A stretch of 64,000 nt of DNA from Patescibacteria group bacterium (lineage in GTDB: Bacteria > Patescibacteriota > Patescibacteriia > UBA9934 > GWF2-40-263), in assembly GCA_041661745.1 (NCBI GenBank), contig JBAZTR010000005.1, forward strand, positions 3,283-67,282. The letters are read 5' to 3'. Positions 3,473 through 52,560 of the stretch are shown here, one piece after another. Position numbers and translations under genes: made by a program. Under the pieces are notes generated by a model, which worked only from the letters and a program-made list of their open reading frames with translations, was not told the DNA's origin and did not search any database. How positions within the stretch are numbered: position 1 is the stretch's first letter; each line of letters begins with the position of its first letter.

Positions 3473-6053
<2,581 letters not shown>

Positions 6054-7691: not shown

Positions 7692-8222
7692 CTATTCGGG
7701 CAGGTCGACCAGGGCGAAGCCGCCGTAGTCGTGGTAGTAAACCGTGTGGGGAGATTTGTTCTCCCAAACGTTGACGAGATCGTGGCCACGAAAATCCGTG
7801 AAGGTTTTCTCGAGGTCCCACAGATCGTCGTAGGCGTTCGTGTAGCTCATGCCGTCGCCCTCCCTAAAAAATCCCGGCCCACGACCACCGCGGAATTCCG
7901 TTGCTGCCGCCAGGGCGCGACGCAAGAAGTTGAGCACACCGGGCACATTCGACCGCCACCATCCCTGGTACCACATGAGCCAGATCGGCTTTCCGCGGTA
8001 GAAGATGACGGTGATGCCGAAGGAGTACCGGATCGAGTACTTGTTGGGCTTTCCGTAGGAGAGCCATGTGTCGATGTACCGGAAGTCGCCCTCACCGAAG
8101 GTCATCATCTTGGCCTTGGGAAAGAACGGAAGCCTCTTCGACTCCTTGCCAGAAGCGTAGGTTTCGTTCTTGGCCATCATGAAGAAGGCCATGGTCTCGG
8201 CAACAGTCGGCAGAGCAGACAT
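7692..8222 (-). CDS. Hypothetical protein, high-GC island 1 (176 aa)
   Basis: Local GC is far above the flanks. The minus-frame protein has balanced composition, whereas the plus-frame ORFs are R/G/P-rich antisense artifacts. It has its own promoter and terminator. I could not reconcile the start codon with the track coordinate; it may be off by 1 nt. Confidence 0.45.
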   Translation of the reverse strand: MSALPTVAETMAFFMMAKNETYASGKESKRLPFFPKAKMMTFGEGDFRYIDTWLSYGKPNKYSIRYSFGITVIFYRGKPIWLMWYQGWWRSNVPGVLNFLRRALAAATEFRGGRGPGFFREGDGMSYTNAYDDLWDLEKTFTDFRGHDLVNVWENKSPHTVYYHDYGGFALVDLPE

Positions 8223-10607: not shown

Positions 10608-12512
10608 TTATTCGTCCTTCTTTTCTTTGAACTCAGCATCAACCGGACCATCTTGCTTTGGCGGTTCCTGATTTGGCGCGCTGTCTGTTTTGTTCGAAGA
10701 GTCTGAGCTTGTCGAAGACTGGTACATTTTGGTGGCAACTTTTTGCGCAGCGTTGGTTAACTCATCAGCCGCTTTCTTAATAGCTTCGTGATCATCGCCG
10801 TCTTTCACCTTCTTAAGTGCTTCAATTTTTTCTTCGATTTCTTTTTTCTCTTCGGCCGTGGCTTTATCACCGGCATCCTTTAACATTTTTTCAGCCGTGT
10901 AAATCATGGTCTCAGCCATGTTCTTGTGTTCGATCTGTTCTTTTTTCTTGGCATCTTCGACAGCATGTGCTTCAGCTTCGCGTTTCATGCGTTCGACTTC
11001 GTCTTTATTCAAACCAGTCGAAGCGGTAATGGTAATGCTTTGTTTTTGATTGGTGGCTTTGTCAGTTGCCGAAACACTCAATATACCGTTGGCATCAATA
11101 TCAAAAGAAACTTCAATCTGCGGAATACCACGCGGGGCCGGCGGCAGACCGGAAAGCATAAACTTTCCAAGAGTCTTGTTGTCAGAAGCCATGGGGCGTT
11201 CACCTTGAAGGACATGAATTTCCACGCTCGGCTGATTATCGCCAGCAGTGGAAAAAATTTGTGACTTGGAAGTCGGCACTGTGGTGTTACGAGTAATTAA
11301 CGGGGTCATGACACCGCCCAAAGTTTCGATACCAAGGGAAAGCGGAGTGACGTCGAGTAACAAAACATCTTTTACTTCGCCAGCCAGAACACCGCCTTGA
11401 ACAGCCGCGCCAATGGCCACGACTTCATCAGGGTTAACGCTAATGTTTGGTTTCTTACCAAAAAATTCTTCAACTTTTTTTAACACCAGCGGCATGCGGG
11501 TCATACCACCAACCATAACGATTTCTTCGATTTCGTTTTTGGAAAGTTTAGCATCACGAAGTGCGGCTTCGACTGGGCCAAAAGTTTTATCAACCAAATC
11601 CATTACCAATTCTTCCAACTTGGCGCGCGTCATGCTCAAAGCCAAATGTTTTGGGCCGTTGGCATCGCTGGTAATGAAAGGCTGGTTGATTTCCGTTTGC
11701 TGGGTGGTAGAAAGTTCGATCTTGGCTTTTTCTGCGGCATCCTTAATGCGTTGCAAAGCCAACGGATCCTTTGAGAGATCGATTCCTTCTTGCTTTTTGA
11801 ATTCACCAATAATCCAATCGATTAAAACGCGATCAAAATCATCGCCACCAAGGTGGGTATCGCCATTAGTCGACTTAACTTCAACTGTGTCAGCGGAAAC
11901 ATCAAGCACGGAAACGTCGAAAGTGCCGCCGCCCAGATCGTAAATTAAAATTTGTTGACCGACTTTTTTATCAAAGCCATAAGCCAAAGCCGCGGCTGTT
12001 GGTTCGTTGATAATACGCTTAACAGTGAGACCAGCGATTTCGCCAGCCGTTTTGGTGGCCGCGCGTTGTGCATCGTCAAAATAAGCCGGCACAGTAATAA
12101 CCGCTTCGGTAATTTTTTCACCAAGTTTTTCTTCGGCATCCTCTTTAAGCTTACGCAAAATCATGGCCGAAATTTCTTCAGGAGTCTGTTCCTTGCCACC
12201 CATCATTATGGCCACACCATCACCACGACGTTGAATTTTGTAAGGCAAAACCTTCAGGTCGCGTTGCACTTCGGCATCCTCCCAACGGCGGCCGATTAAG
12301 CGCTTAATGGAATACAAAGTATTTTCGGGATTAGTAACTGCCTGGCGTTTGGCCGTGGCGCCAACGGTGCGCTCACCGGTTTTGGAAATAGCCACAACCG
12401 ACGGCGTGGTCCGCGCGCCTTCCTTATTTTCTAAAACTTTTGGTTGTCCGCCCTCGATTACGGACATACAGGAGTTGGTGGTGCCGAGGTCGATTCCTAA
12501 TATTTTTGACAT
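10608..12512 (-). CDS. dnaK: Chaperone DnaK (Hsp70)
   Basis: N-terminus [15 protein letters not shown] and full-length Hsp70 signatures (DLGGGTFD, the substrate-binding domain and an acidic C-terminus). Confidence 0.95.
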
Positions 12513-13894: not shown

Positions 13895-13921
13895 CTAGCA
13901 CTCCCTATTATAGAGTGCTAA
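13895..13921. promoter_or_regulatory. CIRCE operator (HrcA binding site)
   Basis: CTAGCACTC-CCTATTATA-GAGTGCTAA matches TTAGCACTC-N9-GAGTGCTAA with one mismatch. It sits about 10 nt upstream of the hrcA start. Confidence 0.85.
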
Positions 13922-13934
13922 TTTATAGTGTCAA
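13907..13934 (-). promoter_or_regulatory. hrcA promoter overlapping CIRCE
   Basis: The minus strand reads TTGACA + 16-17 nt + TATAAT, and the -10 hexamer lies inside the CIRCE spacer. Confidence 0.55.
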
Positions 13935-16493: not shown

Positions 16494-16895
16494 TCAAAGA
16501 AGGTCAACGACACAAGCGGCCGCCGAGGTCGCGAGGACAGCATGCCGGCCATCGTCCAGCTCGGGAAAGTCCTCCTCTTCCGAACCGCTGAGGAGATGCG
16601 TCCGAATCCGTACAGCACATCCGTACCGAGCCTGCTTAAACTGGGAAACCTCGTGTCGCTCGATCCAGCCGTCACGCGACACGACGAACTGTAGGCCGGC
16701 TATCCAGTCGGCCGACATTTCTACCCCGAAAGCGACGACGAAGAAAGTCAGCGTGCCGTCGTCATTACGGCTCATCGCCACGCTTTCGATGCTGTCGAAC
16801 AGGTAGAAGTCGAACGCTTCCTGGTTCAGGAAGGTGATGTTGCCAACGGAGATGGTTTCCCTTCTCCGTTGACGACGCAACGAGAAGGGATCCAT
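16494..16895 (-). CDS. Hypothetical protein, high-GC island 2 (133 aa)
   Basis: A high-GC block with ORFs open on both strands. The minus-frame protein has normal composition and is preceded by a consensus promoter. Confidence 0.4.
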   Translation of the reverse strand: MDPFSLRRQRRRETISVGNITFLNQEAFDFYLFDSIESVAMSRNDDGTLTFFVVAFGVEMSADWIAGLQFVVSRDGWIERHEVSQFKQARYGCAVRIRTHLLSGSEEEDFPELDDGRHAVLATSAAACVVDLL

Positions 16896-28984: not shown

Positions 28985-29495
28985 TTTCAGACCCCTCACC
29001 CCTTTCCCCCGCTACTTGCAGATGAGCGGGGCTCTTCCCCTCCCCCAAGGCTGGGAGGGGAGAAAATTTCGGTTTTAATTATTTTAATTACAGAATCAAT
29101 GTCCTTTAAGACTTGTTCGTTTGTAAATCTCAAAATTTTATACCCAAATCCTTCTAAAACATCGCTCCTAAATTTGTCGTGTTCGGAAAAATCTTTCTTT
29201 TGATGAATCGGCCCATCAACCTCAATAATCAATTTAAGAGTGCGGCTACAAAAATCCGTTATAAAATTTTCTATTCCGACTTGCCGAGAAAACTTAACAC
29301 CCAACCTACTGTTTCTTAAACGACGCCAAAGAACTTCTTCAGCCTCCGTACTTTTTTCCCTTAATTCCCTTCGACTCTCTTTAAGTTTAGAAGGGTTCAT
29401 TTTTGGTACTTCTAACATAAAAATCTTGCCCCCTCTCAGCCCCGGGAGAGGGGGATGGCCTCTCTTGATTTGGAGAGGGGTGAGGGATTCGCTAA
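28985..29495. mobile_element. Miniature DUF559 element: the gene is flanked by GC hairpins and ~20-nt terminal inverted repeats
   Basis: Left end CAGACCCCTCACCCCTTTCC (28985-) versus the reverse complement of the right end, GAATCCCTCACCCCTCTCC (-29495). CCCCTCCC...GGGAGGGG hairpins lie inside both flanks. Confidence 0.45.
28996..29418 (-). CDS. DUF559 endonuclease-domain protein (Vsr/restriction-endonuclease-like fold)
   Basis: EEVLWRRLRN...FSRQVGIENFITDF...IIEVDG..H...D..R...L...G..ILRF matches the DUF559 family. A paralog is at 45577-45954. Confidence 0.75.
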   Translation of the reverse strand: MLEVPKMNPSKLKESRRELREKSTEAEEVLWRRLRNSRLGVKFSRQVGIENFITDFCSRTLKLIIEVDGPIHQKKDFSEHDKFRSDVLEGFGYKILRFTNEQVLKDIDSVIKIIKTEIFSPPSLGGGEEPRSSASSGGKG

Positions 29496-29608: not shown

Positions 29609-29830
29609 ATGCGAGGAAACTTTGGCTGGACCCCAGAGCAGAGAGAAGTGGCCAGGCGTAACGATGCCTGGCGGCGAGAACTGCGGCGCCGCGGAACCCA
29701 GGAAGGTGGCATCGTCGAAAGCGCCGACGATGTCCGGGCCATGCTCGGCAGCGGCGGCCGCTTCCTCGCCCGCTTCTTCCCAGATCGCCCCTCCGATCGT
29801 CTGCCCCCTACTTCACCCGACGATGAGTAG
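29609..29830 (+). CDS. Small hypothetical protein, high-GC island 3 (73 aa, Arg-rich)
   Basis: The ATG at 29609 is preceded by AGGAGCTGG. The GC-rich body reads MRGNFGWTPEQREVARRNDAWRRELRRRG..., and the antisense ORFs look like artifacts. GGGCTTTTTT follows the stop. Confidence 0.4.
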   Translation: MRGNFGWTPEQREVARRNDAWRRELRRRGTQEGGIVESADDVRAMLGSGGRFLARFFPDRPSDRLPPTSPDDE

Positions 29831-31459: not shown

Positions 31460-32041
31460 CTAGCGGGGGACGCACCGCATGTGGGCCTCGGTGTCCAGGA
31501 CGCGGAGGTCCCGGATCTCCCCGACCTCGTCGTCGTTGAGGGCGTGGGCCGGATTCACCGTCACACTGCCGTCCGGGTTCCGGAAGCAGTGGACGTGCCC
31601 GAAGGTCCGCCCGAGGATCTCGGTGAGCTTGGCCTGGAGGGCCGGGGACATGTCCAGGGCGGGCTTTCCTGCCTCGAGGACGACGACCAGGAAGTACATC
31701 CGGTCGCCCTCCTTCTGGAACATGGTCAGCCCGGTCACGGACCATCCGAACACCCTGGTCACGTCCGCGAGGACGCAGCGCAGGGAGACGGACTGGCGTC
31801 CCTCGGCCTTCCAACCGAACACCGGCGTGCCGGAGTCGGCCTGGCGGTTGCCGACGGCATCGGTGCGATCGCCGCGGAGGCCGTCGCGGCCGGCGGCACT
31901 GGCGCGCTCGATGTTGCGCTCGGTCAGCTCGGTCTGGCGCTGGGTGGAGCGCACGGTGCAGACGACTCCGAGTCCCTTGAGCATCGCGGCCGCCCGGTCG
32001 TTGATGCGGGGCTTGACGATGAACCTGACGATCTGCGACAT
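31460..32041 (-). CDS. Hypothetical protein, high-GC island 4 (~193 aa)
   Basis: The ATG at 32041-32039 is preceded by GGAGGTTCAA. The protein MSQIVRFIVKPRINDRAAAMLKGLGV... has two VFGW repeats. The overlapping 295-aa (-) and 188/217-aa (+) ORFs are R/G/P-rich antisense artifacts. Confidence 0.45.
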   Translation of the reverse strand: MSQIVRFIVKPRINDRAAAMLKGLGVVCTVRSTQRQTELTERNIERASAAGRDGLRGDRTDAVGNRQADSGTPVFGWKAEGRQSVSLRCVLADVTRVFGWSVTGLTMFQKEGDRMYFLVVVLEAGKPALDMSPALQAKLTEILGRTFGHVHCFRNPDGSVTVNPAHALNDDEVGEIRDLRVLDTEAHMRCVPR

Positions 32042-45502: not shown

Positions 45503-45570
45503 TGTTCAATAGCAATCCTCCACCCCAACCCTCCCCCAATAGGGGAGGGAGAACCAGTTTCAGAGGAAGG
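45503..45570. repeat. GC hairpin repeat, left flank of DUF559 gene 2 (direct copy of 45943-46000)
   Basis: AATCCTCCACCCCAACCCTCCCCCAATAGGGGAGGGAGAACCAGTTTCAGA matches the right-flank copy at about 90%. Confidence 0.55.
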
Positions 45571-45954: not shown

Positions 45955-46033
45955 CCCTCCCCCAATGGGGGAGGGAGAGCTGATTTCAGACGCCGGTCTT
46001 CCCCTCCCTTTGGGAGGGGATAAGAGAGGAAGG
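45943..46033. repeat. GC hairpin repeat, right flank of DUF559 gene 2, plus a second TCTTCCCCTCCC-TTT-GGGAGGGGA hairpin
   Basis: AATCCTCCTCCCCATCCCTCCCCCAATGGGGGAGGGAGAGCTGATTTCAGA is followed by CGGTCTTCCCCTCCCTTTGGGAGGGGATAAGAG. Confidence 0.55.
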
Positions 46034-46035
46034 AT

Positions 46036-47163
46036 TTAAAATTCTTCCTCAATGGCCTGAATTAAGGTTTTCATCCCCAGGCCCTTCTCGGCCGAAACAA
46101 AGACCGGGTTATAGGTTTTCCATCTTTTAGCAATAGTACTGAAATCTGTTTTTGAACAAAGGTCGATTTTGTTAAAAACGTAAAGTTTGGGCGTTTTTTC
46201 CACACCCAATTCACACAAAACTTTTTCCACCACGGCTATTTTGAAACGCATCATGGGGTCGGAAACATCAATAACATGGAGCAGTAGATCAGATTCGACA
46301 GCTTCGGACAAAGTTGATTTGAAAGCATGAAGAAGTTCGGGTGGAAGATTTTTAATAAAACCAATAGTGTCGGAAACCAAGGCCTGTTCGTGGCGCTCGG
46401 GTAAATACAATTGACCAACGCGGGTGTCGAGAGTGGCAAAAAGTTTATTAGCCACGTATTCATGGCGGCCGGTAAGGGTATTCAAAAGCGAAGTTTTACC
46501 GGCATTGGTATAACCAACAACCGAAATCGTTTTTAAACCGCGACGCCGACGATCTTGACGATGTCCGGCCCGAACGTTTTCGTATTGCTTAATTTTTTCG
46601 ACAATAGTACGTTCGCGTTCTTTTAAGTGGCGCTTCATGCGTTCGATGTTGGTTTCGCCAATACCGCTGGTACCAATACCGCCACCTTGGCGCGATAATT
46701 CTAGCCCCATGCGAAAAATGCGCGGCCCCATGTGGCGAATGCCGGCCAATTCGATTTCCAATCGCGCTTCAGTGGTTTGAGCGTGTTTGGCAAAAATTTT
46801 CAAAATCAAATCCAGCCGGTCCCAAACCTCTACCCCGGCTGGTTTTAAAATTTCCTGGAGTTCGTACATTTGCCTGGGCTTTAGACGGTCGTTGACAATC
46901 AAAAATTTGGCGCCCAAGGTTCGACCCTCGTCGCTTAATTCGGCAGCCTTGCCCGGACCAATGAAAGTGCGTGGATGCGGGGCAAAACGCCGTTGATATT
47001 TTTTAACAATTACCAAACCGCCGAAAGTGTTAACCAACTCTTCCAGCTCACGCAAACGCTCCTCACTCTGCGCCGCCCGCATGCGCGGGTGAATCAGATC
47101 GATAAGAATGGCCTTTCCGGCGAAGCCGGATCCGGCTCCGCCGGATTTCTTTTCTGGAGTCAT
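46036..47163 (-). CDS. hflX: GTPase HflX
   Basis: The HflX N-terminal domain is followed by a G domain (ISVVGYTNAGKTSLLN, DTIGF, NKID). Confidence 0.85.
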   Translation of the reverse strand: MTPEKKSGGAGSGFAGKAILIDLIHPRMRAAQSEERLRELEELVNTFGGLVIVKKYQRRFAPHPRTFIGPGKAAELSDEGRTLGAKFLIVNDRLKPRQMYELQEILKPAGVEVWDRLDLILKIFAKHAQTTEARLEIELAGIRHMGPRIFRMGLELSRQGGGIGTSGIGETNIERMKRHLKERERTIVEKIKQYENVRAGHRQDRRRRGLKTISVVGYTNAGKTSLLNTLTGRHEYVANKLFATLDTRVGQLYLPERHEQALVSDTIGFIKNLPPELLHAFKSTLSEAVESDLLLHVIDVSDPMMRFKIAVVEKVLCELGVEKTPKLYVFNKIDLCSKTDFSTIAKRWKTYNPVFVSAEKGLGMKTLIQAIEEEF

Positions 47164-47180
47164 GGCTCCATGATATCACA

Positions 47181-47209
47181 TTGACAATTATAGATAATTA
47201 TACTAATAT
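47181..47209 (+). promoter_or_regulatory. Sigma70-type promoter of island-5 gene A (TTGACA-N17-TAATAT)
   Basis: TTGACA lies at 47181-47186 and TAATAT at 47204-47209 with an exact 17-nt spacer in an AT-rich block. The GC-rich leader begins right after the -10 hexamer. Confidence 0.5.
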
Positions 47210-47283
47210 TCTCTTCCTTGCCATTCAGGGTCTGGCTGGGATTTGTTCTCTTAACAACGACCCTATACAACACAGGTGAATAA

Positions 47284-48132
47284 ATGCGAGGCAACGCCGC
47301 GGCCCTCAAGAAACTCGTTCCCACCGTCTTCGCCGACAGCAAGGTCCGGTTCGACGAGAACACCGGCGAGCCCATCCTGGTCGTCAGGATCGTGAAGAAG
47401 GTCACCACCCAGCTCGCGAGGGAGATCAGGGTTCTGGTCATCACGACCGAGCCCGAACTCAACACCAAGGGCATGGCCGAGAAGCTCAACTCCTTCGCCT
47501 TCGACGACGAGAAGATCTACGAGCTCCACTTCGACCGGGACGGCCTCAAGACCTGCCTGGTCGATGACGTGGTCGTCGAGGCCACCAAGAACCCGGGGCT
47601 CCGGGAATTCCTCTCGCACTACTTCCACAACTGCTGCACCGCGGTCAGCGACCTCGACAAGACGCTGGGACGCCTCCCCTCGGTGGAGCAGCTCACCGGG
47701 GACATCGAACGCGAAGTCGAGCCGCGACTCGTGGAAGCCTTCACCAAGGGCAACCCGGTCGCCTTCGTCACCGGCCCGACCAACATCGTGCCGATCTGCC
47801 CCTGCAAGGCAACGATGCTCGACCCCTTGTTCCTCGACGTCCTCGGCATGGTCGGCGGCGAGGAGCTCAAGACCCTCAACAAGAAGCGAGCCGAGCTCGA
47901 GGCGATGGCCCGGGACAAGGCGACTCTCGTTACCATCGTCCCTGTGGAGTGCCGCAACATCTTCTTCAACCTCGCCGCCACGATCATCGTCGCAGCGATC
48001 GAGGCCCTGCTCCCGGACATCGTCCAGGCCGAGCAGGACAAGATCGCGGTCAACGCGGGGGCGGCCATCGCGGCCCTCCACGACGCACGGCGCGCGACCG
48101 CCGAGGCCAGCACCGACATGACCGAGGCCTAG
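47284..48132 (+). CDS. Hypothetical protein, high-GC island 5 paralog A (282 aa; HNCC and PICPCK Cys motifs)
   Basis: The ATG is preceded by AGGTGAATAA. Composition is balanced and third-codon positions are almost all G/C. It is homologous over most of its length to the next gene. The antisense ORFs (47263-48174 minus, 47564-48121 plus) are artifacts. Confidence 0.5.
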   Translation: MRGNAAALKKLVPTVFADSKVRFDENTGEPILVVRIVKKVTTQLAREIRVLVITTEPELNTKGMAEKLNSFAFDDEKIYELHFDRDGLKTCLVDDVVVEATKNPGLREFLSHYFHNCCTAVSDLDKTLGRLPSVEQLTGDIEREVEPRLVEAFTKGNPVAFVTGPTNIVPICPCKATMLDPLFLDVLGMVGGEELKTLNKKRAELEAMARDKATLVTIVPVECRNIFFNLAATIIVAAIEALLPDIVQAEQDKIAVNAGAAIAALHDARRATAEASTDMTEA

Positions 48133-48233
48133 CCCAGGCCCACGTTCCCGCTTCTTCAGAAGAAGCCACGGCAACTCTTGCCGCGCGCTCTATGGAGAAG
48201 TGGTTTTTTATTTTAGAAAACAACAACGCGGCG

Positions 48234-48262
48234 TTGACAAGGCCGGGGAAATATTATAATCT
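48234..48262 (+). promoter_or_regulatory. Sigma70-type promoter of island-5 gene B (TTGACA-N17-TAATCT)
   Basis: TTGACA lies at 48234-48239 and TAATCT at 48257-48262 with a 17-nt spacer. The leader that follows is homologous to the gene A leader (GCCATAAGGGGTCTGGCGTGGGTTGTTCC versus GCCATTCAGGGTCTGGCTGGGATTTGTTC). Confidence 0.5.
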
Positions 48263-48340
48263 TTTCCTCCTGCCATAAGGGGTCTGGCGTGGGTTGTTCC
48301 TAAAAATTTGACTGACCCCAACCTTTGTTCGGAGGTTCCC

Positions 48341-49072
48341 GTGCTAACTTCCCTAGCGTCGCTCGTTGCTCTCGTCCCGGAGGTCTTCACCAACCTCGGG
48401 ATCACCTTCGATCCCGAGACCAACGCGCCTCTCCTGGTCGTCAAGATCGTGAAGCGGGACGGTGTCCTGACTCTCACGACCGAACCCGAATTCGACACCA
48501 AGGGCATGACCGAGAAGCTCGACCCCACATCCTTCGAGGAGGGAGTCGTCTACGAACTCCAGTTCGGCCCGAAAGAAATGGGAATCTACTCAGTCGACGG
48601 CGTGGTCACCAACTCCAGTATCAACCCCGGTCTCCAAGAACTGGGCGTGCACCTCTACTACCACGGCTGTTGCGCGGCCGGCGACCTCGACAAAACACTG
48701 AGATGTCTCCCGTCGGTTGAGAATCTCACCGAGAGTCTCGGCGTCAGCGTCGAGAGATACCTCATGAAGGCCCTCAACGAGAACGACACGGATGCCTTCG
48801 TCACCGGACCGATCGGCAACTGGGCGATCTTCGAGAAGGAGGCAGTGGACGGGGATATGGAGGCTATCACCATCCCCATCCCACTGGAGCGCGAGAACAT
48901 GTTCTACAGCCTCGCAGTCACGATCCTCGTCGCGGTGTTCGAAGCTTTGTTTCCAGACATCGTCCGAGCGCAGCAGATGGCCATCATAGACAGGACCGAG
49001 AGGATCCTCGTGGCCGCGCGGAAGAAGCTCTGCCCGCATCCGCCGGACGACACACCGTACCGCGTCAGATGA
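48341..49072 (+). CDS. Hypothetical protein, high-GC island 5 paralog B (~243 aa; HGCC Cys motif)
   Basis: A GTG at 48341 is preceded by GGAGG 5 nt upstream, and from there the product aligns with the paralog A N-terminus (LVPEVF/LVPTVF ... LLVVKIVK/ILVVRIVK ... GDLDKTLRCLPSVENLT/SDLDKTLGRLPSVEQLT). The track ORF starts at a TTG at 48308. Confidence 0.5.
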   Translation: MLTSLASLVALVPEVFTNLGITFDPETNAPLLVVKIVKRDGVLTLTTEPEFDTKGMTEKLDPTSFEEGVVYELQFGPKEMGIYSVDGVVTNSSINPGLQELGVHLYYHGCCAAGDLDKTLRCLPSVENLTESLGVSVERYLMKALNENDTDAFVTGPIGNWAIFEKEAVDGDMEAITIPIPLERENMFYSLAVTILVAVFEALFPDIVRAQQMAIIDRTERILVAARKKLCPHPPDDTPYRVR

Positions 49073-49111
49073 GCGGCTCCCGACCGCGTGTTCGGCACCC
49101 TCGCCTCCCCC

Positions 49112-49140
49112 AAACTCGGGAGGCTTTTAAAAAACCAAAA
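49112..49140 (+). terminator. Terminator after island 5 (GCCTCCC-ccaaact-CGGGAGGC + TTTT)
   Basis: The hairpin is followed by TTTTAAAAAA and belongs to the same CCCTCCCCC..GGGAGGG hairpin family seen near the DUF559 genes. Confidence 0.5.
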
Positions 49141-49162: not shown

Positions 49163-50227
49163 ATGAATAAAACTCGCCACGAACAGTTTTCCGAATTATT
49201 TCCCAATGAACCAAAATATCGCTGGAAGCAAGTCGAGTTAGCTTTGTTTCAAGAAAAAAATCACGGTTGGAATGACGCCACTTCCCTGCCCGCGGCTATG
49301 CGGGCCAGCTTGGCGGAAAAAATTTCTTGGCTATCTTTTGAAAAAGTAACCGAGGTGGCCGAACAAGACGGTTCGGTTAGGAAGGTCTTACTTGAAGCCG
49401 AAGATGGCAGCCGGATTGAATCGGTTTTAATGCAAAATAAATCCGGAAAATATTCGGTTTGTGTTTCGACTCAAGTTGGTTGTGCCATGGGCTGTGCTTT
49501 TTGTTCAACTGGCAAACTTGGTTTGAAACGAAGTTTAACGGCCGATGAAATTGTTGATCAACTACGCTATTGGCAGTTGTCACAAAATCCAATCACTATT
49601 CCCGCCCCGAACGGCGACACTGAAGGAAAAGAAATAATTACCAATATTGTTTTGATGGGTATGGGCGAACCCATGAACAATTACGAAAATGTTCGCGAAG
49701 CTTTAAATACAATTCTTGCCAACACTGGCATTGGCCCCACCCACATCACCGTGTCTTCGGCCGGCGTGCTGCCGCGCCTTAAAAAGATTTTGGAAGATAA
49801 AGAATGGCCACCGGTGTGTATTGCTATTTCTCTTCACAGTGCTGATCCGATTATCAGAAAAAAAATCATGCCTTCGTCTAGCCCAAACTTTTTACCAGAG
49901 CTCTACGAATGGGCCGAGGAATATTTAAGTAAATTCGGCAATCGCAGCCACTATCTGACTTTTGAATACATAATGCTGGACGGCGTAAACGATAGTGTCG
50001 AGGATGCTAAAAAACTGGCGGCTTATGCCAAGCCACTCAGTCACGCCAAAATAAATTTGATTCCCTACAACGACGCGGCTGGCGAATTCCAAACCAGTTC
50101 ACAAGAAAAAATCTTCGCCTTCATGGAAGTTTTACAAGATGCCGGACTTGATGTAACGCGCCGACAGTCACTAGGTGGATCGATTAAAGCGGCTTGCGGA
50201 CAGTTGGCCGCTGGGGTTGTTCGCTAA
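49163..50227 (+). CDS. rlmN: 23S rRNA (adenine2503-C2)-methyltransferase, radical SAM
   Basis: The radical-SAM CAMGCAFCSTG cluster and RlmN-specific N- and C-terminal regions (MGMGEP, SSAG) are present. The likely start is the internal MNKTRHEQF. Confidence 0.85.
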   Translation: MNKTRHEQFSELFPNEPKYRWKQVELALFQEKNHGWNDATSLPAAMRASLAEKISWLSFEKVTEVAEQDGSVRKVLLEAEDGSRIESVLMQNKSGKYSVCVSTQVGCAMGCAFCSTGKLGLKRSLTADEIVDQLRYWQLSQNPITIPAPNGDTEGKEIITNIVLMGMGEPMNNYENVREALNTILANTGIGPTHITVSSAGVLPRLKKILEDKEWPPVCIAISLHSADPIIRKKIMPSSSPNFLPELYEWAEEYLSKFGNRSHYLTFEYIMLDGVNDSVEDAKKLAAYAKPLSHAKINLIPYNDAAGEFQTSSQEKIFAFMEVLQDAGLDVTRRQSLGGSIKAACGQLAAGVVR

Positions 50228-52238: not shown

Positions 52239-52296
52239 ATTGTTTATCAGTGTAGCATAAAAAATGAATAGAAAAATAAAAAGTCTTTTTTCCTCT

Positions 52297-52560
52297 CCCC
52301 CAAACCCCCTCCCCTCCGGGAGGGGGCTTTACGCCCCGTGTCTCCGCTCCTCGGACAGCTAACCGTCTTCAGCGGCCTGGCTCGCTAACTCGCTGGCCAA
52401 CTGCGCCGAGTAATTGGCGCTCACTCCTCGGCTTGTTGGCTGCACTCGAACAGAGGCTCGCCTTCCGACCTACGGAACCGGCCGCTTCAGCCGGGCTGTC
52501 CTCCGGGGCTCGACGCGGGGCGGTTTTATTTTTTAAAAGAAAAACCACCGAAGCAAATCA
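52297..52560. other. GC-rich non-coding block (candidate ncRNA or decayed high-GC cassette)
   Basis: About 260 nt at over 60% GC with no ORF of 60 aa or more in any frame. It starts with a CCCCCTCCCCTCC-GGGAGGGGG hairpin and ends with a GC hairpin + T tract and an AAAAACCAC...GTGGTTTTT hairpin. Confidence 0.3.

Follow-up and report, generated by a model that had tools for sequence, protein, structure and literature searches.

Why does a Patescibacteria genome carry, between hflX and an rlmN-like gene, two similar genes that are each equipped with their own promoter, leader and terminator and are written in codons that are avoided elsewhere in the genome? The pair, here called gene A and gene B, lies at 47181–49134 of a 64,000-nucleotide (nt) stretch of the 70-kb contig JBAZTR010000005.1 (the window), which is part of a Patescibacteria metagenome-assembled genome and has an overall guanine-plus-cytosine (GC) content of 45%. 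A preliminary description of the window had read the pair as a tandem duplication of a complete expression module. We find that A and B are an ancient tandem pair within a copy-number-variable array of autonomous expression modules.

Two complete expression modules in tandem

Comparison of the two coding regions (47284–48129 and 48341–49069) by BLASTP gave 39% identity over 255 columns with an E value of 1e-50; a MAFFT alignment was also made. The paralogy proposed earlier is thus borne out, and all the sequence blocks that had been named for it fall inside the alignment. The DNA of the two modules contains direct repeats in register, 126–139 nt long with 71–72% identity and a spacing of 1033; the leader core is repeated at a spacing of 1052, and the 130 nt 5′ of the two genes align at 74% column identity, in agreement with the homologous upstream DNA already described. 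The leader motif GGGTCTGGC..GG..TTGTTC was found at only two sites in the window, before A and before B, and both promoters were recovered as TTGACA-N17-TAATAT (A) and TTGACA-N17-TAATCT (B). Duplication of a complete expression module is therefore supported and can be extended, because each copy also has its own intrinsic terminator.

Module A (all parts on the + strand) begins with a promoter at 47181–47209, in which the −35 element TTGACA (47181–47186) and the −10 element TAATAT (47204–47209) are separated by a 17-nt spacer; it scored 10/12 in a consensus scan and points away from the adjacent hflX, whose start codon is at 47163. The predicted leader (47210–47283), conserved over eight family leaders, leads into gene A (47284–48132; NCBI WC702_04760, MFA6132336.1), which encodes a soluble alpha/beta protein of 282 residues with an acidic isoelectric point (pI) of 5.1 and has a GC content at third codon positions (GC3) of 0.93. 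A long interrupted hairpin followed by UUUUUU forms its terminator (48148–48209; minimum free energy (MFE) −38 kcal/mol, z −4.84, none of 200 shuffles being as stable), which is homologous to array-member terminators in a related genome, as seen by alignment to the 3′ untranslated regions (UTRs) of the family genes J_1 and J_2. Module B repeats this layout on the same strand: promoter B lies at 48234–48262 (TTGACA at 48234–48239, 17-nt spacer, TAATCT at 48257–48262), and a predicted leader (48263–48340) homologous to leader A precedes gene B (48341–49072; WC702_04765), which encodes 243 residues (pI 4.5, GC3 0.80) from a GTG start that fits the family N terminus M-x-x-S-L-A-S-L. Terminator B (49103–49134; GCCUCCC-loop-GGGAGGC, then UUUU; z −2.0) is homologous to the region 3′ of the last array gene in the related contig L008. 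Homology to the 3′ UTR and terminator regions of relatives thus holds for both copies.

The left flank of the slot is hflX, encoding the GTPase HflX (46036–47163, − strand; TIGR03156, 363 bits against a cutoff of 217). To the right, the promoter region of rlmN and its ATG (49163) come after terminator B; the gene (49163–50227, +) encodes an RlmN-like radical SAM RNA methyltransferase that matches TIGR00048 below the cutoff (267 bits against 290).

A and B are not fragments of one frameshifted gene, because both are full length relative to their homologues. A chimeric assembly was also rejected: the Logan assembly of SRR6484324, made independently, covers the whole region and agrees with the window at 100% identity along the 3852 bp between the start of hflX and the Nramp gene. 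The extra segment noticed in A does exist, as 31 residues absent from B; it is not a gain by A, however, because most family members carry it, and the difference is therefore a loss in B. An antisense open reading frame (ORF) of 303 codons spans all of gene A (47263–48174, −). It was rejected as a gene, being not conserved over B, and is a by-product of codon choice: A is scarce at sense third positions, so few antisense codons begin with T.

An uncatalogued protein family

A profile built from A and B was used for an exhaustive HMMER search of 1.84 billion (1.84e9) representatives. The family comprises 9 clusters only, each with 1–2 sequences among about 15 billion proteins, and all 9 originate from AT-rich Patescibacteria-type contigs. 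Word-indexed searches, with A alone or with the 9-sequence alignment, returned only A itself and the member P0008 and are too insensitive for this family. No profile match was found in Pfam-A, NCBIfam, PHROGs or PADLOC, so that A and B match no defence or phage family of the last two collections, tblastn searches of phage and plasmid collections revealed no homologue, and viral contigs yielded none. The search for relatives in high-GC bacteria and phages, which had been suggested as a check, likewise found none. The family is restricted to one Patescibacteria clade and is uncatalogued.

The proteins are acidic (pI 4.3–6.5). Hydropathy and direct reading of the N termini (MxPSLASLLALVP..F..) revealed no signal peptide, lipobox or transmembrane segment in family proteins; the highest 19-residue hydropathy is 1.0–2.05, located in the amphipathic C-terminal helix. 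An AlphaFold2 model, obtained from only the 9 family sequences, reached a mean predicted local confidence (pLDDT) of 89.8 and a predicted template-modelling score (pTM) of 0.81. The predicted fold consists of two N-terminal helices, a four-stranded antiparallel sheet, two long helices and a small extra beta/alpha unit, and ends, in gene A, in a 54-residue C-terminal helix. Foldseek found no structural neighbour of the model at E<=0.001 in the PDB or BFVD.

The invariant columns of the 9-sequence alignment are D24, L32, V34, P57, E80, L124, P132, L149 and G164. No cysteine column is invariant or near-invariant, and the number of cysteines per member ranges from 1 to 6. This bears on the earlier idea that the CC pair and scattered cysteines of A and B reflect metal-binding or disulfide chemistry. 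The pair itself and the 4–6 cysteines in A and B speak for it, but 6 of the 9 members have other residues in place of CC, no cysteine column is shared by the family, and J_4 and L9_b carry a single cysteine each; cysteine-dependent function is hardly credible.

The family also evolves fast. Between the window and its relatives, housekeeping neighbours are 73–89% identical with saturated synonymous sites (synonymous divergence, dS, 1.15–2.6): amino acid identity is 87% between RlmN and its L009 and L008 orthologues, 82% between HflX and its L003 orthologue, and 86% for Nramp between genomes. Positional orthologues of A and B are only 25–39% identical. For the two closest genomes, the nonsynonymous divergence (dN) of PBP is 0.03 at a dS of 0.55, against a dN of 0.38–0.39 for family orthologues, whose dN/dS is about 0.55 or lower. 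By these comparisons, the family proteins diverge roughly 10 times faster than neighbouring housekeeping genes. Judged from their sequences, the family genes are nevertheless coding and under purifying selection.

The array and its slot in related genomes

The contigs of relatives that carry the family are AT-rich and share with the window the gene order LOG, uridine kinase, PBP, hflX, array, rlmN and Nramp. Across related genomes, the slot upstream of rlmN holds 2 to about 6 copies, and the right neighbour of the array is rlmN in four genomes. The duplication is old and is one state of this array, which is kept in position across relatives. The family adjoins rlmN in L002, L008 and L009 and lies near hflX in L003. 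In L002, one family gene (P0008) and a second gene, unrelated or very divergent, stand upstream of rlmN; L008 has two family genes with a small unrelated gene between them, then rlmN; and in L009 family genes are followed by rlmN and Nramp. Contigs L101, L020/L005 and L009, all from one sample (J), chain through shared sequence into an array of J_1 to about J_6 that runs from the hflX region to rlmN.

Two genes of this array, J_3 and J_5, have a near-identical leader and 5′ half (the first ~115 codons), followed by a 3′ half of 40–72% identity. The mosaic is seen at L101 12265–12640, L020 1–800 and 2004–2118, and L009 1–760, and the contigs break exactly at the repeat. This pattern is evidence that array members have recently recombined or undergone gene conversion with one another.

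Neither flanking inverted repeats nor attC-like imperfect palindromes were found around A and B. Integron gene cassettes were rejected as an explanation of the array, as every ORF is equipped with a consensus promoter and a terminator of its own and attC-like imperfect palindromes are missing. An array of this kind could also encode a phase- or antigen-variable surface protein family like Mycoplasma vlp or vsa, and the tandem divergent paralogues with a conserved 5′ region, the changes in copy number, the mosaic genes and the obligate-symbiont organism all agree with that. However, the proteins lack the export and membrane signals of such families, the 17-nt promoter spacers are of mixed sequence with neither homopolymers nor simple sequence repeats, no invertible repeats are present and an intact consensus promoter precedes every copy, which makes this origin highly improbable.

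A conserved element in the leader

Eight leaders were compared: those of A and B, four of the J sample and two of L008. Downstream of the −10 element they share a common pattern, CCUUGCYA, 2–4 nt, GRGUCUGGC, 2–3 nt, GG..GUUC, a pyrimidine tract and GACYCC. Each leader is about 75 nt long with a conserved core of about 50 nt, in which most of the 18 invariant columns lie; mean identity is 0.71 in the core, 0.35–0.45 in the remaining leader and about 0.5 in the coding sequence. From the eight leaders, RNAalifold predicted a 6-bp long-range helix, GGGGUC/GACCCC. By explicit count, 95.8% of the cells of this helix are paired and two pairs are changed on both sides (G-C/A-U/G-U); none of 500 shuffles reached the observed score, which fell clearly in all slid controls. 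The strands lie 30–36 nt apart, at variable distance. A hairpin, CCUUGCCA/UGGCNNGG, holds the 5′ strand of the helix in its loop, so that an H-type pseudoknot is predicted. In A and B the predicted hairpin begins 7 nt past the −10 element, at the expected +1 (transcription start site (TSS) placed from the −10).

In leader A, the arms of the predicted hairpin are CCUUGCCA (47216–47223) and UGGCUGGG (47233–47240), and the loop AGGGUC (47227–47232) would pair with GACCCU (47259–47264) to form the pseudoknot; the GUUC and pyrimidine tract lies at 47242–47252 and the Shine–Dalgarno sequence (SD) AGGUGA at 47274–47279. In leader B, the predicted arms are CCUGCCA (48269–48275) and UGGCGUGGG (48285–48293), the loop GGGGUC (48279–48284) is predicted to pair with GACCCC (48314–48319), GUUGUUCC occupies 48293–48300 and the SD GGAGGU 48331–48336. 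In the consensus fold the SD remains unpaired, 10–12 nt downstream of the 3′ helix strand.

An RNA loop fits the hairpin better than a DNA operator, because its half-sites are 7 to 9 nt apart, depending on the leader. From these sequences we infer that the leader core is an RNA element rather than a DNA operator. It could instead be an operator with the palindrome TGCCA-N7-9-TGGCA, or a tract homogenised by gene conversion, with no role for RNA structure. As DNA, the hairpin arms form an inverted repeat just as well, a perfect TGCCA...TGGCA in J_4 and L008_b; the hairpin has no double compensatory change, and the near-identical 5′ parts of J_3 and J_5 are direct evidence of conversion or recombination. 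On the other hand, dimeric operators rarely have half-sites whose spacing varies between 7 and 9 nt, covariation (G-C, A-U, G-U) is seen in the helix to GACCC at its variable distance of 30–36 nt, and the core is conserved across genomes while A and B share only 0.69 of it, so that it is not homogenised within the genome. We regard the operator or conversion explanation as unlikely.

A covariance model of the eight leaders scored A at 58.5 bits and B at 61.5 bits, both being in the training set, and found no further copy in the window and none in viral contigs. With Rfam (15) at gathering thresholds, the whole window yielded two tRNAs only and no match to the leader; a permissive scan of 47150–48400 returned chance-level matches only, and the related loci gave none. 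Scans for the leader pattern gave 101 loci in JGI metagenomes, of which only those on contigs of one sample (3300028028) are real, 91 loci in GTDB genomes with no true match, and 27 loci in IMG/VR that are all chance (15–20 bits, against 58–84 for real copies). P0008 and P0009, the most distant members, are preceded by different leaders of comparable layout, in which a UUCCUU-type tract follows a 5′ hairpin.

These data also bear on whether the leader controls the family as a riboswitch of a new class that senses a small molecule. A compact, conserved, predicted 5′ UTR pseudoknot with invariant single-stranded UCUGGC and GUUC that matches nothing in Rfam would suit a riboswitch. Yet an expression platform, in which alternative base pairs would mask the SD or build a terminator, is not evident in the leaders, the element was found only before one very rare, fast-evolving and non-enzymatic-looking family, and the distant members have other leaders; we hold a riboswitch to be very unlikely. 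Autoregulatory RNA binding is also unlikely, because the family protein is acidic and without conserved basic residues.

Two further readings of the leader were rejected. An upstream ORF is not shared: in A, an ORF of 21 codons starts with TTG and ends at the ATG, but the corresponding frames in B and J_1 stop after 3–7 codons. A sigma-54 promoter does not account for TGGC...TTG, as neither the spacing nor the GC dinucleotide matches.

Synonymous GC enrichment

GC content at the three codon positions is 0.63/0.39/0.93 in A and 0.60/0.38/0.80 in B, by which both ORFs are genuine coding frames. In the other ~55 ORFs of the window, GC3 is 0.27–0.56 and GC at second positions (GC2) is near 0.39. 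The GC excess of A and B is almost purely synonymous, because GC3 is outlying while GC2, at 0.385, is host-like. Codon choice in the family is approximately the mirror image of that of the genome: TTC makes up 95% in the family and 17% in the genome, ATC 97% and 18%, CTC 75% and 6%, AAG 89% and 26%, and TAC 100% and 33%. The composition changes sharply at the start codon, with promoter and leader AT-rich. Every relative shows the enrichment, with a GC3 of 0.56–0.80 for the family against 0.21–0.33 for the host in J, 0.48–0.67 against 0.31–0.38 in L008, and 0.67 against 0.22–0.38 in L009.

Codon optimisation for high expression was rejected as the cause, as the pilin (5547–6053) and DnaK (10608–12512) genes of the window have ordinary GC3 and the lysine, glutamate and glutamine codons of the family end in G. 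GC-biased gene conversion was rejected as the sole cause, given the AT-rich leaders with their switch in composition at the start codon and the same bias in unrelated single-copy cassettes. GC3 is slightly higher at conserved columns (pooled odds ratio 1.23, p 0.03), a weak effect in which amino-acid content is uncontrolled.

A and B deviate in composition from the host genome in the way of a GC island. A recently acquired GC-rich island was rejected nevertheless, as the family occupies the same slot in L002, L008 and L009 and lies near hflX in L003, and no homologue was found in a sampled GC-rich donor, phage or plasmid. Older import needs more weighing: GC-rich coding regions could have been brought in by recombination, from GC-rich hosts or GC-rich Patescibacteria, and now be decaying toward the AT-rich state. 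In favour of such an import, host genes come nowhere near the GC3 of 0.93, values of 0.48–0.93 across paralogues and genomes are as expected for amelioration of different ages, mosaic paralogues show recombination in the array, and the more distant, syntenic, GC-rich relative L230 has the codon-position profile of gene A in all its genes. Against it, a neutral relic of import should have decayed, because host synonymous sites are saturated (dS >1) between genomes; the slot, the AT-rich promoter and leader and the terminators are all kept over that distance, at which amelioration should be complete. Furthermore, the break in composition falls exactly at the start codon, and no homologue occurs outside AT-rich Patescibacteria contigs, whether among the 1.84e9 representatives or in phage and plasmid collections. 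GC2 tracks genomic GC, and classical high-GC bacteria have a higher GC2; here GC2 is host-like and well below theirs. Actinobacterial arginine codon usage likewise differs from that of the family, in which AGA, AGG and CGA make up 48%. Decaying import is, on balance, unlikely.

L230 (Logan SRR22387820) is an 11.6-kb contig with 64% GC, on which GC at first positions (GC1) is 0.62–0.71, GC2 0.40–0.45 and GC3 0.8–0.98. Its gene order is a methyltransferase, a homologue of the 31460–32041 gene of the window, TruD (47% identical to that of the window) and DUF4178. Genomic GC swings widely within this Patescibacteria group, because the whole gene set of L230 is GC-rich; the high GC3 may stem from GC-rich relatives by introgression or have been inherited from an ancestor rich in GC.

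Other cassettes of the window

About seven intergenic TTGAC-N17-19-TAnnnT promoters were found in the window, and five of them precede GC3-rich genes. At least four single-gene cassettes match the design of A and B, with a consensus promoter (TTGACA-N17-TAnnnT), a predicted 5′-end hairpin, a GUUCC-type or pyrimidine tract, a GC-rich ORF and a terminator. They lie at 31460–32041 (−; GC3 0.94), 7692–8222 (−; GC3 0.79), 16494–16895 (−; GC3 0.70) and 29609–29830 (+; a GC-rich ORF). Their products are ORFans, except for a Pfam DUF5680 match of 7692–8222. The 31460 family is a rare ORFan kept beside truD in relatives (GC3 0.82 versus 0.40). A predicted 5′-end hairpin is present in all six GC3-rich cassettes of the window, as is GTTC(C) at 20–50 nt past the −10 element; the shared GTTC(C) leaders may mark a common regulon.

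Three further features of the window were noted. First, a GC-rich, ORF-free stretch at 52330–52522 (−) has a rod-like fold of ~190 nt (MFE −128 kcal/mol, z −6.5, 0 of 200 shuffles) and no Rfam match at gathering, and on this modelling is probably an unannotated structured RNA; within it, GUAGGUCGGAAGG resembles the domain IV motif of signal recognition particle (SRP) RNA. Second, at 13907–13934 (−), a consensus promoter is followed by a CIRCE-type inverted repeat, TTAGCACTC-N9-GAGTGCTAG, before hrcA-grpE-dnaK-dnaJ, which is ordinary heat-shock control. Last, short GC-rich palindromes, CCCCCTCTCC...GGAGAGGGGG, recur at gene ends (~29440–29480, ~45540–45560, ~45990–46030 and ~52290–52345) and read as ‘GEGWGGG’ in spurious ORFs; they may be repetitive extragenic palindrome (REP)-like intergenic repeats or terminators.

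A proposed role for the modules

We propose, at about an even chance of being right, that A and B are autonomous, co-regulated modules for an acidic, soluble protein that is diversifying, in which the leader RNA acts in cis and the synonymous enrichment in G/C is selected. The slot upstream of rlmN, which adjoins hflX here, holds head-to-tail autonomous transcription units, each composed of a near-consensus sigma-70 promoter, a ~75-nt leader, an ORF of C- and G-ending codons and an intrinsic terminator. In the proposal, the leader core would form a hairpin right at the 5′ terminus, with its loop pairing with the downstream GACCC box, with GUUC and the pyrimidine tract next to it. The leader may then act in cis on the mRNA by protecting its 5′ end, by docking a conserved trans-acting factor, or both, and would yield strong, coordinated expression of all paralogues while their protein sequences diversify. 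The protein would most likely act in a conflict with phage or the host bacterium, and this antagonism could drive divergence and copy-number turnover, and the G/C-ending codons would be maintained by selection at the level of mRNA or translation rather than reflect recent import from a GC-rich source.

Several observations weigh against parts of this proposal. The 5′ hairpin shows one-sided changes only and has two mostly mismatched internal pairs, and the covariation in the helix comes from eight related sequences, perhaps from one or two independent events. Single-sequence leaders fold no better than shuffles (z −0.2 and +0.7), with a program that cannot model pseudoknots, and the placement of the TSS at the hairpin comes from the position of the −10 element alone. 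The GC3 of paralogues within one genome varies from 0.56 to 0.80, which is more like decay from a GC-rich state than uniform selection, and L230, a more distant Patescibacteria-like relative, has GC1, GC2 and GC3 like those of gene A in all its genes. Relaxed constraint could account for the fast divergence, and nothing in the protein ties it to a host or phage interaction: neither a signal peptide, nor a transmembrane segment, nor a match to a defence or phage family was found.

A preprint (bioRxiv 10.64898/2026.06.21.733656) describes AT-rich codon usage in Patescibacteria, opposite to that of their GC-rich hosts, and the uptake of host RNA. It covers genome-wide usage, not a minority of genes in the opposite dialect; the cassettes described here are written in precisely those codons which other genes of this genome avoid, the host-like half of the code. 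In this genome and its relatives, the tandem family and the at least four cassettes might be written deliberately in the codon dialect of the GC-rich hosts and be translated efficiently only with host-derived components, a speculation prompted by the preprint that we rate as a long shot. Imported host tRNAs, arriving with host RNA, or expression inside the host cell would then enable translation of the cassettes, and the pseudoknotted leader could be a handle for specialised expression. If so, host-dialect codon usage would be a sensor or address label for a parasitic phase.

Patescibacteria are abundant, mostly uncultured epibionts whose host-interaction genes and gene regulation are almost unexplored. 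New here are an uncatalogued protein family with a confident predicted fold that changes in sequence (~tenfold) and copy number at an arms-race-like speed; a compact conserved 5′ UTR element, probably a pseudoknot, in a phylum with hardly any described cis-regulatory RNAs; and a few vertically inherited genes at 80–93% synonymous G/C among remaining genes near 40%. Simple horizontal transfer and expression-linked codon bias are poor explanations of this GC3 anomaly; should selection maintain it, it would be relevant to how these parasites keep their own translation apart from that of the host RNA they import.

Comparison with known systems

The closest functional parallels to the proposed leader RNA are of two kinds. 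The 5′ UTR of ompA in E. coli and the aprE and ermC leaders in B. subtilis are stem-loops at the 5′ end that stabilise the mRNA. As in these, the predicted hairpin lies within a few nt of the predicted 5′ end, with a strong promoter before the gene; unlike in these, its loop is predicted to pair also with a downstream box as a pseudoknot, and the invariant loop and flanks imply recognition by a factor, beyond protection of the end. The autoregulatory pseudoknot of rpsO, bound by S15, and the SAM-II and preQ1-II riboswitches are pseudoknotted cis-regulatory leaders. With them the element shares a predicted H-type pseudoknot of ~50 nt in the 5′ UTR, conserved unpaired bases and a U-rich connecting strand, whereas the SD lies outside the predicted pseudoknot and no Rfam model matches the element.

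As an array, the modules recall the vlp genes of Mycoplasma hyorhinis and the vsa genes of M. pulmonis, which are multigene families with a conserved 5′ non-coding region. Both here and there, tandem paralogues have a promoter and leader far better conserved than their coding parts, copy number differs between strains, and paralogues are recombinant and mosaic. The family described here differs from them in having no lipoprotein signal, phase-variable promoter repeat or invertible element; each of its copies has its own terminator, and its synonymous GC enrichment has no counterpart in the Mycoplasma families.

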